From Candidatus Binatia bacterium (GTDB lineage: Bacteria > Desulfobacterota > Binatia > UBA9968 > CAXXLF01), in NCBI GenBank assembly GCA_963664015.2, contig CAXXLF010000002.1:352001-416000 (forward strand): DNA of 64,000 nucleotides. Direction: 5' to 3'. The notes under the pieces are model-generated. The model did no database searches. It worked only from the letters and a program-made list of their open reading frames with translations, and was not told the DNA's origin. How positions within the stretch are numbered: the stretch's first letter is position 1; each line of letters opens with the position of its first letter. The translations under genes were made by a program, and so were the position numbers. Shown one piece after another: positions 42,879 through 54,438 of the stretch.

Positions 42879-43997
42879 ATGATAGCTGACCATGCCGAGA
42901 CCGTAGGCAGTCTTCTGCGCCCTGATTGGTTGCTAAACGACCGCAAGGACCTGTCTGCGGGTATTATCAACGAAGGTAGGCAGGCTAGATTCAAGGAAAT
43001 TGAGAATCGCGCGGTCGATGAGGCCATCCGGCTCCAGGAAACGGCGGGACTGGCGATTGTTACCGACGGCGAGATGCGCCGATTGTCCTTCCAGGGTCAG
43101 ATGGTGGAGGCCGTGAACGGATTTGGCGAGTATGATATCGACGCTTTCCTGTGGGGGGAATGGCAAGGTGATAGAGATGTCGGCCACTGGAACCTGGAGC
43201 GTCCCCACACACTGGGAGTCGTCAATAAGTTGGCTCCCAAACGCTACCTATCCGTCGACGAGTTCACCTATTTGCGCGACCGAACTACACGAATACCCAA
43301 GATTACACTGCCAAGCCCGAGCCTCTTTGCCAACTTCTGGTCCGAGGAGCGCTCCAGGAATATCTACCCGACACTGGATTCTTTCCTGGCCGATATCGTC
43401 CGTATCCTCCAAAGCGAGGTCGCCGAGCTCACTCGCGTTGGGGCCACCTATATTCAGCTGGATGCGCCCCACTATTGCCAGCTCCTAAATCCCAGGACCC
43501 GGACCTTCTACGAGTCTCGAGGCTGGAGCATGGACCGATGGTTGAGGAAAGGAATCGAGCTGGACAATGCCGTAATCGACCACGCCCCATCAGTCACCTT
43601 CGGCTTTCACCTGTGACGGGGCAACCAGGGCAGCCGGTGGCTGTCCGAGGGAGGCTACGACGTAATCGCGAAAGAAGTATTTTCAGGAGTCCGGGCCCAG
43701 CGACTCTTGCTCGAATTCGATGACCCGCGTTCCGGCTCCTTCGAACCGCTGAAAGAAGTCACCGAGGAGAAAACGGTTGTCTTGGGGCTAGTTTCTACCA
43801 AACGGCATCTGCTGGAGAGCCAAACGGATCTTATCCAGCGAATCCAAGCCGCTGCCCGATTCCTACCCCTCGATCGGCTAGCTTTGAGTCCACAATGCGG
43901 CTTTGCAAGTTCGGTGATGGGTAATCGCATCTCGATCACGGATCAGTTAAAGAAGCTCCGCCGGGTTGTGGAAACGGCCCGGGCGGTCTGGGGCTAA
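42879..43997 (+). CDS. Cobalamin-independent methionine synthase II-like Zn enzyme, probable selenoprotein (UGA=Sec at 43614-43616)
   Basis: VGSLLRP, TDGEMRR, YIQLDAP, GFHL-TGA-RGN (family HxCRGN), LLEFD, LSPQCGF all in one frame; 372 aa with readthrough. Confidence 0.88.
43628..43646 (+). other. Putative bacterial SECIS hairpin
   Basis: GGGCAGCC-GGT-GGCTGTCC starts 11 nt after the UGA; apical loop begins with G. Confidence 0.75.
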
Positions 43998-44106: not shown

Positions 44107-44775
44107 ATGGCAAGCCAAGAATTCATCGACTCTCTGCTAAAAGACATCATTCACCCGGGGGTCGAGCGTCTTATGGAGACACGCTTTTTCTCCGAGTTGA
44201 GAGAAGGAAAACTATCCGTCAAGAGACTACAGGGATTTGCCTTGCAGCATTACCTGCACAACGAATCCATCAACAGGGGGTTCGCCCTCTGCATAGTGAA
44301 AAATGCCCATATCCCCGACCTCTATGAACACTTTGCCCATCAGTTTCTCGAAGAGTATCACCACCCCAATCTGGCCAAACGCTTTGGGCTGGGGCTGGGG
44401 CTCAAGGAGGAAGACTTTAAACAAATCACCCCGGTCTTTGAGTGCCTCGCGCATACAAGCGCAGTCCTACGGGGGATGCTACTCGGCGCTGCAGGAGAGA
44501 ACCGGACCGGTGCCCTGGTCAACGAAACCATGGTCTGCCGCTATTCTACCGAATTCAACAGTTGTCTACACAAGCACTACCATCTTTCCAGTGATGACTG
44601 CCAATTTTTCGTGGTCCACGCCGTGGCGGACATCGAACATATCAGGCTGAACGCAGAAGTCATCGCCCGTTACGTTCAGACCCCCTGGGAAGAAGAAGCG
44701 TCCGTCGCGTGCGCAAAGAATATGGTTCGCTTCAAAATCGCCAAGTTCGACGGCATCTACGAAAGCTACGCTTAG
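44107..44775 (+). CDS. Heme-oxygenase-like diiron (PqqC/TenA/CADD-like) protein
   Basis: EEYHH, NE, HAVADIEH (H-x3-D-x2-H); AAGGAGG SD. Confidence 0.8.
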   Translation: MASQEFIDSLLKDIIHPGVERLMETRFFSELREGKLSVKRLQGFALQHYLHNESINRGFALCIVKNAHIPDLYEHFAHQFLEEYHHPNLAKRFGLGLGLKEEDFKQITPVFECLAHTSAVLRGMLLGAAGENRTGALVNETMVCRYSTEFNSCLHKHYHLSSDDCQFFVVHAVADIEHIRLNAEVIARYVQTPWEEEASVACAKNMVRFKIAKFDGIYESYA

Positions 44776-54363: not shown

Positions 54364-54438
54364 GCGCCCGTAGTGAAAAGGATATCACGAGGGTCTCCGA
54401 AACCCTAACTCCGAGTTCGATTCTCGGCGGGCGCACCA
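54364..54438 (+). tRNA. tRNA-Arg (anticodon CCG)
   Basis: Acceptor GCGCCCG/CGGGCGC, D stem GTGA/TCAC, anticodon arm AGGGT-CTCCGAA-ACCCT, T loop TTCGATT, encoded CCA. Confidence 0.95.

Follow-up and report, generated by a model that had tools for sequence, protein, structure and literature searches.

Among described systems, those closest to the gene analysed here, a MetE-like gene that carries one in-frame UGA codon and lies in a 64,000-nucleotide stretch of Candidatus Binatia bacterium DNA (this whole stretch being referred to as the window), are methionine synthase MetE and its single-domain relatives. For E. coli MetE, Price et al. 2021 (PMC7857596) give H641, C643, E665 and C726 as zinc ligands and S433, E484 and D599 as the residues that bind homocysteine, and the same paper presents the 'core' methionine synthases MesA-MesD as single-domain MetE relatives whose donors are thought to be other than methyl-folate. 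In the literature searched, no selenocysteine (Sec) member is described either for MesA-MesD or for the 'methionine synthase II' group (structure 1ypx; models NF005085 and NF004875). Sec in the place of a metal-binding cysteine is established in formate dehydrogenase (Mo/W) and [NiFeSe] hydrogenase (Ni), in both of which Cys forms coexist with Sec forms (PMC13188914 section 7). Regarding the selenocysteine insertion sequence (SECIS) of bacteria, the consensus is a hairpin within the coding sequence with a stem of 4-16 bp and a small apical loop of 3-9 nt, located 16-37 nt from the UGA, with a G in the first two loop positions (G then G/U) and a minimum free energy of at most -7.5 kcal/mol (PMC13188914 section 5 and Fig. 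2A legend).

When the window gene is compared with these systems, it shares with the MetE catalytic domain the fold (Foldseek TMq 0.70-0.75 against the MetE structures of T. maritima, C. albicans and plants), the H-x-C ... E ... C zinc layout and, as far as profile coordinates indicate, the Ser/Glu/Asp homocysteine positions, but differs from it in being only about 370 residues long, in having a predicted Sec for the Cys of H-x-C, and in showing approximately 16-18% identity in structural alignments. It is single-domain like MesA-MesD and the methionine synthase II group, yet it is distant from MesD (3rpd, E 2.7e-8). As in formate dehydrogenase and [NiFeSe] hydrogenase, Sec would replace a metal-binding Cys; however, those two are redox enzymes with redox-active metals, whereas the zinc of the present enzyme would act as a Lewis acid in group transfer. 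Its hairpin resembles the SECIS consensus in its small apical loop, its G then G/U and its position within the coding sequence, but is very short, with a conserved core of 5 bp plus a triloop, the core being dictated by the encoded peptide. Judged from sequence comparison, the UGA is almost certainly decoded as Sec in place of the zinc-binding Cys, and the best joint explanation of the data, which is considered highly likely, is a 372-residue Sec enzyme that combines hairpin-directed decoding, a MetE-like zinc site and thiol alkylation.

One reading frame across the UGA codon

The gene and its UGA codon have the following positions in the window:

42879-43997, + strand: whole gene of the MetE-like Meth_synt_2 enzyme, 372 codons plus TAA (43995-43997), with one in-frame UGA
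43614-43616, + strand: UGA codon (U246), placed by codon and protein alignments where the H-x-C zinc motif has its Cys

The open reading frames 42879-43616 and 43707-43997 (+) share the same frame, and readthrough of the TGA yields 372 residues with a single internal stop, U246, in the context GFHL-U-RGNQGSRW. A preliminary description of this DNA had claimed one frame split by the TGA at 43614-43616 and by no other lesion, with the later ligand motifs LLEFD and PQCGF intact, and both observations were confirmed (E279 at 43713-43715, C340 at 43896-43898). TGA is also used as an ordinary terminator in this genome, where it ends 293 of the 795 stop-to-stop frames of at least 400 codons, and the window's own database entry is a 245-aa product (P0005) that gene callers ended at the TGA. 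This annotation would suit a TGA that arose by nonsense mutation or through faulty assembly, leaving a pseudogene or a 245-residue product only, which is an explanation that we find scarcely credible. The whole gene was recovered with 0 differences in contigs of two sequencing runs belonging to two studies (one of which may be the source), while a seawater run of a third study contains a strain approximately 97% alike, with 14 differences over 43446-43997 and none at 43614-43616. An assembly slip is therefore unlikely, since contigs from separate studies keep the TGA; sequencing data with TGC or TGT in its stead, which had been named as a finding that would speak against Sec, were not encountered in these contigs. 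Moreover, the half of the barrel at or after the TGA holds all zinc ligands but His244, so that a truncated product could not be this enzyme, and the gene is free of other lesions.

The conservation of the codon was followed in two sets of homologues, namely an order set of 41 genomes (the window's genome, G000, plus 40 related genomes of the same family and order) and a named set of 80 loci, the top-scoring ones in a search with aligned Sec forms. All nine hits of at least 58% identity in the order set have exactly one TGA, located at the codon after H-x (9/9), and the hits of at most 46% identity are without internal stop bar one in genome G002. The latter, a second TGA-bearing paralogue in that genome, was rejected as a Sec form, as it has Cys at H-x-C and its TGA lies outside the aligned part. 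In the named set the codon is TGA at 33 of the 80 loci, TGC at 37 and TGT at 10; one record is common to both sets (L016 = L076), so the 9 + 33 TGA loci correspond to 41 distinct genomes. The NCBI labels of the TGA genomes represent approximately 11 phyla (Poribacteria, Gemmatimonadota, Acidobacteriota, Methylomirabilota, Latescibacterota, Bacteroidota, Myxococcota ('Deltaproteobacteria'), Binatota, Chloroflexota, Thermodesulfobacteriota and Tectimicrobiota), and when 150 other genomes from the phylum of the window were sampled, no further orthologue was present at E <= 1e-100. The possibility raised in the preliminary description that the TGA might be unique to this assembly, with Cys in all close homologues, does not describe the family: 41 genomes have TGA and 47 close homologues have TGC or TGT. 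These 47 Cys-form rows include L088 (genome G097), which is flagged unpublished and on which alone no claim is made.

Selection on the part of the gene downstream of the TGA was assessed by six pairwise comparisons, in which the proportion of non-synonymous differences (pN) is far below that of synonymous ones (pS) both before and after the codon; for L013 versus L014, for example, pN/pS is 0.078/0.456 before the TGA and 0.043/0.355 after it. This indicates that the downstream part is translated, and the equal purifying selection on both sides of the codon, together with the recurrence of TGA at this position in 41 distinct genomes, argues against a pseudogene.

Sec machinery and the hairpin downstream of the UGA

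The preliminary description had proposed to look for the Sec machinery in the genome, and selA, selB, a Sec-containing selD and tRNA-Sec were all found. The genes selA (606 bits), selB (409 bits) and selD (373 bits) lie side by side on contig C2 of the window's genome, with selD having its own in-frame TGA (C2:1311164) in the motif AAG-U-AAK, and tRNA-Sec is located 10 kb further along the contig (detected by ARAGORN and Rfam, 74.2 bits), all four being contained within approximately 16 kb (C2:1306534-1322629). A Cys paralogue of the MetE-like gene is situated 4.4 kb past tRNA-Sec (C2:1327005-1328123, - strand), a layout that is the same in G002. Among the TGA-form genomes, selA was found in 39 of 41 (8/9 within the order and 31/33 of the named loci), and one of the two exceptions, G090, is without detected selA but has a tRNA-Sec at 76.7 bits. 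With regard to the subfamily as a whole, selA is present in 69 of the 80 genomes that carry it and in 38 of the 47 with a Cys form, while PMC10418091 quotes 21.5% for bacteria overall. This enrichment may be an artefact of locus choice and relatedness, or may reflect a link between the subfamily and selenium.

Readthrough of the UGA could in principle occur without Sec, either through a near-cognate tRNA (Trp, Cys or Arg), through insertion of Cys by the Sec machinery, or through synthesis of two polypeptides with a restart at TTG 43707. Such a scheme could account for database protein P0054, recorded with W at the position of residue 246, and for genome G005 (= G085; loci L016 and L076), which has the TGA form and in which no selA, selB, selD or tRNA-Sec scored over the cut-off. 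It is nevertheless regarded as very improbable: Cys is the only residue with which homologues match this codon, selA occurs in 39 of the 41 TGA-form genomes and tRNA-Sec in one of the remaining two, nucleotides of the downstream loop are constrained only in TGA forms, as the SECIS consensus demands, and in-frame conservation extends from the TGA up to 43707 (RGNQGSRWL), which excludes a restart at 43707. The G005 assembly consists of 240 contigs and is rated 100% complete; considering that the sel genes of G000 span only about 16 kb, a single missing contig could account for the result.

The element proposed to direct Sec insertion is the following:

43628-43646, + strand: candidate SECIS hairpin, stem 43628-43635 with 43639-43646 and GGU loop 43636-43638, assigned from fold and consensus

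The arms GGGCAGCC (43628-43635) and GGCTGTCC (43639-43646) enclose the loop GGT and form 8 pairs including one G-U, and the hairpin alone folds at -12.8 kcal/mol. It starts 11 nt past the TGA, as the preliminary description had noted, and a spacing of 11 nt from the UGA is also that of the E. coli fdhF SECIS. With a GGU loop, 8 bp, a loop distance of 19 nt from the UGA and the above folding energy, it agrees with all four consensus criteria given in the introductory paragraph. In the seawater strain that is about 97% alike, the substitution C43631T leaves one C-G pair of the stem as U-G. Decoding would proceed by binding of SelB and Sec-tRNA(Sec) to this hairpin 19 nt downstream of the UGA, resulting in Sec insertion and no termination, with a stem of 5-8 bp and a G-G/U-U triloop as the putative recognition element.

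Further genes of this kind were sought by scanning the 3.5-Mb genome for a TGA with at least 60 open codons before it and at least 30 after it, and with a stem of at least 6 bp capped by G[G/T]T within 12-35 nt of the TGA. The scan returned 12 hits, consisting of the window gene, members of three known selenoprotein families, four hits without Pfam match and four short ones. The motifs of the three families have the TGA at the known position, as per Table 1 of PMC13188914:

C1:143664-144818, - strand: relative of the SQR type III selenoprotein subtype (L115), a pyridine-nucleotide-disulfide oxidoreductase / FCSD-like gene; LRLHTI-U-LLACG (H-x-x-U), 9-bp stem, GGT loop, 18 nt
C2:587475-588242, - strand: deiodinase-like redoxin (L113); GSIT-U-PPF, 8-bp stem, GGT loop, 17 nt
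C1:254818-255576, + strand: AhpC/TSA (Prx-like) protein (L114); H-U-WPYC (U-x-x-C), 6-bp stem, GGT loop, 24 nt

The gene selD, which the scan missed because its TGA is close to the gene start, has an 8-bp stem and a GUU loop 33 nt past the UGA. As four other selenoprotein genes share the stem-triloop, the hairpin of the window gene is of a design that the SelB of this genome must already recognise. A Sec-containing formate dehydrogenase, which would have provided an internal SECIS control, was not found in this genome.

Several results count against this view of decoding or limit its support. The 48 nt past the codon fold at a mean of -18.1 kcal/mol in the Cys forms versus -15.6 kcal/mol in the Sec forms, and the 47 Cys forms also carry AGCC-GNT-GGCT, a core of 4 bp within a hairpin that is short and largely dictated by the peptide. 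The Cys forms fold at least as stably because AGC-CGN-TGG-CTN, which encodes S-R-W-L, is self-complementary; as the core is forced by this peptide and occurs in Cys forms as well, the presence of a hairpin says little in itself. Folding energy was consequently dropped as a discriminator, the 76-nt fold having z = -0.94 versus shuffles. RNAalifold backs only five pairs, its covariation term being small (-0.38), and the figures of 0/500 shuffles obtained for the stem pairs are not probabilities, since related sequences can exceed shuffles without structure. In addition, no RNA run is among the sequencing runs listed as containing the gene, and the lack of detectable machinery in G005 belongs with these points.

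What does discriminate between Sec and Cys forms is not the folding energy but the central loop base, together with stem pairs five and six. The loop is G[G/U]U in 40/40 distinct Sec-form sequences versus 14/47 Cys forms. Its middle base is the third base of the Arg253 codon, which is CGG in 34 and CGT in 6 of the 40 Sec forms, and CGC in 31, CGG in 9, CGT in 5 and CGA in 2 of the 47 Cys forms. At the other CGN codons of the Sec-form genes, CGC plus CGA make up 56% of 1069, and at Arg247, six codons upstream of Arg253, CGC is the commonest codon (22/40 Sec forms). The fifth stem pair (27-39) is kept in 38/40 Sec forms versus 24/47 Cys forms, with double changes to AU in two cases and GC in one, and the sixth (26-40) in 24/40 versus 7/47. 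In the RNAalifold consensus of the 72-nt alignment, a 5-bp stem plus triloop is formed by columns 27-31 with 35-39, and no other conserved pairing is predicted.

The shared core and the overlapping folding energies would fit a situation in which Sec is inserted, but the 43628-43646 hairpin is a coding by-product and another element directs SelB. That arrangement is judged improbable, given that the Sec-specific constraints coincide with the loop and the fifth and sixth pairs of this hairpin, that known selenoprotein genes of the genome have the same stem-triloop at 17-33 nt, and that the alignment contains no other conserved pairing. Of the claim in the preliminary description of an fdhF-type SECIS, the agreement with the consensus stood and was joined by Sec-specific loop and pair constraints, while its core turned out to be a coding by-product that Cys forms also have. 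The reading as a 372-aa selenoprotein, also put forward there, was upheld by the machinery, the conservation of the codon, the selection past it and the agreement with the SECIS consensus.

The predicted zinc site and its possible chemistry

The readthrough protein matches PF01717 (Meth_synt_2) with E 3.8e-13 and 49.9 bits against a gathering cut-off of 21, and the nearest NCBIfam models are NF005085 (PRK06520) and NF004875 (PRK06233), which represent 'methionine synthase' subfamilies of approximately 370 residues; homologues in the database carry the name 'cobalamin-independent methionine synthase II family protein'. Against the full-length MetE model TIGR01371, only profile positions 430-612 are matched (query 8-208), at 24 bits versus a cut-off of 930. 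Full-length MetE has two domains and about 750 residues, whereas the present protein has 372 residues and is without the folate-binding half. An AlphaFold2 model obtained from 79 sequences (pLDDT 88.1, pTM 0.90) has T. maritima MetE as its best Foldseek match (1t7l_A, E 9e-19, TMq 0.74) and also matches 1ypx and 3rpd. Sequence comparison, the structural model and the Foldseek matches identify the protein as a single-domain 'core' MetE-like zinc enzyme; the earlier designation as MetE-like is hence borne out by PF01717 and the fold, and applies to the single-domain core only, without the folate-binding N-terminal half.

The residues expected to form the active site, besides U246, are encoded as follows:

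43608-43610, + strand: His244, first zinc ligand (H-x-U) by homology; invariant in 121/121 aligned rows, opposite the H-x-C His in both 1ypx and C. albicans MetE
43713-43715, + strand: Glu279 (LLEFDD), likely third zinc ligand, with Asp281 as the alternative; invariant, last residue of the modelled strand 275-279
43896-43898, + strand: Cys340 (PQCGF), predicted fourth zinc ligand; aligns with PDCG of C. albicans MetE
42909-42911, + strand: Ser11, probable counterpart of E. coli MetE Ser433; invariant
43071-43073, + strand: Glu65 (VTDGEMRR), probable counterpart of Glu484; invariant
43461-43463, + strand: Asp195 (IQLDAPH), probable counterpart of Asp599; invariant

The correspondence of Ser11, Glu65 and Asp195 to the E. 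coli residues was obtained via TIGR01371 profile coordinates, not by direct alignment to E. coli MetE. In the closest solved relative, 1ypx (E 1.3e-46), H-I-C-RGN aligns with H-L-U-RGN; the next solved relatives are the MesD structure 3rpd and then Candida albicans MetE, in which H-F-C stands opposite H-L-U and PDCGL opposite PQCGF. The position of Sec at a zinc ligand, as claimed in the preliminary description, is consistent with these alignments to the H-x-C Cys of 1ypx and C. albicans MetE. In the AlphaFold2 model, strands end at H244 and E279, and C340 is just past strand 334-338. The column of residue 246 is Cys in 119 of the 121 aligned rows, the others being the window's truncated product and P0054 (395 aa), which has W at the H-x-C position (GFHL-W-RGNQ); the W is probably a TGA read as Trp by a gene caller, i.e. 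another hidden Sec form. The column of C340 is likewise Cys in 119/121 rows, with one F and one gap (the window's truncated product). Residues R247, G248, N249 and Q250 are invariant, and RGNQGSRWL is nearly invariant in the family.

In the proposed mechanism, zinc would be held in a (beta-alpha)8 barrel by His244, Sec246, Glu279 and Cys340, and would bind and deprotonate the thiol of an amino-acid substrate. Homocysteine is the most likely such substrate because the Ser/Glu/Asp residues by which MetE holds it appear to be kept. The activated thiol would then attack a methyl or alkyl donor other than methyl-folate. A selenolate ligand would be expected to raise the reactivity of the zinc-bound thiolate, and an oxidised site in the form of Se-S rather than S-S might be easier to reduce.

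The enzymatic part of the proposal has its own adverse evidence. The protein scores below the cut-offs of both nearest NCBIfam models (233.3 versus 313 bits for NF005085 and 206.8 versus 576 bits for NF004875), one HMMER alignment to 3rpd places D281, not E279, opposite the ligand Glu, and Sec246 is placed among the zinc ligands by homology. The genome has a full MetH (1653 bits), no full MetE, and three paralogues each with Cys at H-x-C, so that methionine synthesis from methyl-folate is not implied. Clustering of neighbouring genes gave no family common to loci across phyla, in an analysis that did not include a family search for DUF1852, the MesX partner of MesD.

Around the window gene itself, the neighbours are a Na/H exchanger, an unnamed 136-aa open reading frame and the following gene:

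44107-44775, + strand: TenA / haem-oxygenase-like 'iron-containing redox enzyme' (PF14518, PF03070), directly downstream

These three neighbours adjoin the orthologues in G002 and G004 only. The sole tRNA in the window is a tRNA-Arg (anticodon CCG) at 54364-54438 (+). The largest neighbour clusters consisted of shadow frames antisense to the gene and were set aside as giving no functional clue. In a clade labelled Binatia or Deltaproteobacteria (loci L015-L019, L064, L067, L069, L071, L076, L077, L079 and L108), a TauE/SafE-family gene is near 13 loci and a PEMT/ICMT-family methyltransferase gene near 11; at L071 the TauE gene is 17 nt past the match and on the opposite strand.

A different role for Sec was also weighed, in which it is not a passive ligand and acts instead as a nucleophile, in a methyl relay or in redox protection, or in which the substrate contains selenium, the enzyme serving sulphur or selenium metabolism over methionine synthesis. 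Most selenoproteins are homologues of thiol oxidoreductases or have redox motifs, with Sec in the active site (PMC13188914), and an oxidised T. maritima MetE structure, 1xr2, is among the structures listed by Foldseek. We take its oxidised form to be a disulfide between the ligand cysteines. The presence of MetH and three Cys paralogues in the genome, the TauE/SafE and PEMT/ICMT neighbours of the one clade and the high frequency of selA in genomes of the subfamily, Cys forms included, would also accord with such a role. On the other side, the four zinc-site positions, and apparently also the three that bind homocysteine, are retained, in keeping with the usual mechanism of MetE; relatedness confounds the selA enrichment, as does the choice of the 80 loci as best matches to a Sec-form alignment; and the neighbours are clade-specific, with TauE on the opposite strand at L071, the one locus compared. 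This role is therefore seen as possible, if on the unlikely side, and Sec as a ligand of a MetE-like zinc site remains the preferred explanation.

Evolution, novelty and meaning of the Sec forms

To examine the relationship between Sec and Cys forms, 39 Sec and 47 Cys sequences (86 in total) were placed in a quick maximum-likelihood tree, which is unrooted and omits the partial L020 as well as L076 and L081, whose 72-nt stretch around the codon is identical to that of another row. The tree requires at least 9 Sec/Cys changes, or at least 5 when only branches with SH-aLRT >=95 are trusted, from which we infer that switching between Cys and Sec occurred several times. With support 100, a Sec form from Chloroflexota pairs as sister with a Cys form from Dehalococcoidia, and one Latescibacterota Cys form is nested in a Sec clade. 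The nearest neighbours of the window protein in the tree are those of G002 and G004, members of the same family, followed by Sec forms of Acidobacteria, Latescibacterota and Methylomirabilota, while the Sec forms of the sister family f2 constitute a separate clade among Binatia-labelled metagenome-assembled genomes. This patchy distribution is as expected with horizontal transfer.

The conserved S-R-W-L peptide would pre-encode the core of the hairpin, and a switch between Cys and Sec would then involve a one-base change between TGC/TGT and TGA, in either direction, and a silent substitution at a single Arg codon. Because the core is already coded by S-R-W-L, one base and one synonymous change would be enough.

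With regard to novelty, Table 1 of the 2026 review PMC13188914, which describes its inventory of 119 selenoprotein families or subfamilies as the most comprehensive, has no entry for PF01717, MetE or a methionine synthase, and NCBIfam release 20.0 yields no selenoprotein-specific model for this protein. Term searches of the Sargasso Sea, GOS, Olavius, Peng 2016, deep-Sep and BSepDB papers (PMC1088965, PMC2398784, PMC13326102, PMC12013277, PMC5029168 and PMC1976440) gave no mention of methionine synthase, MetE or homocysteine. In the full-text literature searched there is thus no MetE-like selenoprotein, a listing in a supplementary table being possible. The gene is judged to represent a real and widespread selenoprotein family that has apparently gone unreported. 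It is on balance probable that the full picture also holds, namely that of a widespread unlisted family in 41 genomes with about 11 phylum labels, having Sec on the catalytic, non-redox zinc of a thiol methyltransferase, a SECIS exapted from the S-R-W-L hairpin, and a history of at least 5 to 9 switches between Sec and Cys.

If true, Sec would be put to a new use here, as the selenolate of a naturally occurring zinc site in an enzyme of group transfer. The coexistence of Cys and Sec versions, sometimes as sisters (L099/L082, support 100), offers a ready comparison of the effect of Sec at a Lewis-acid metal. A hairpin derived from coding sequence would provide a concrete case of SECIS gain and loss, and bears on the origin of new selenoproteins. 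Sec forms of the family are likely to be stored as truncated products in many environmental genomes, and marking the family would correct these records. Finally, seawater metagenomes contain the gene, so that it may be relevant when the selenium demand of microbes is estimated.

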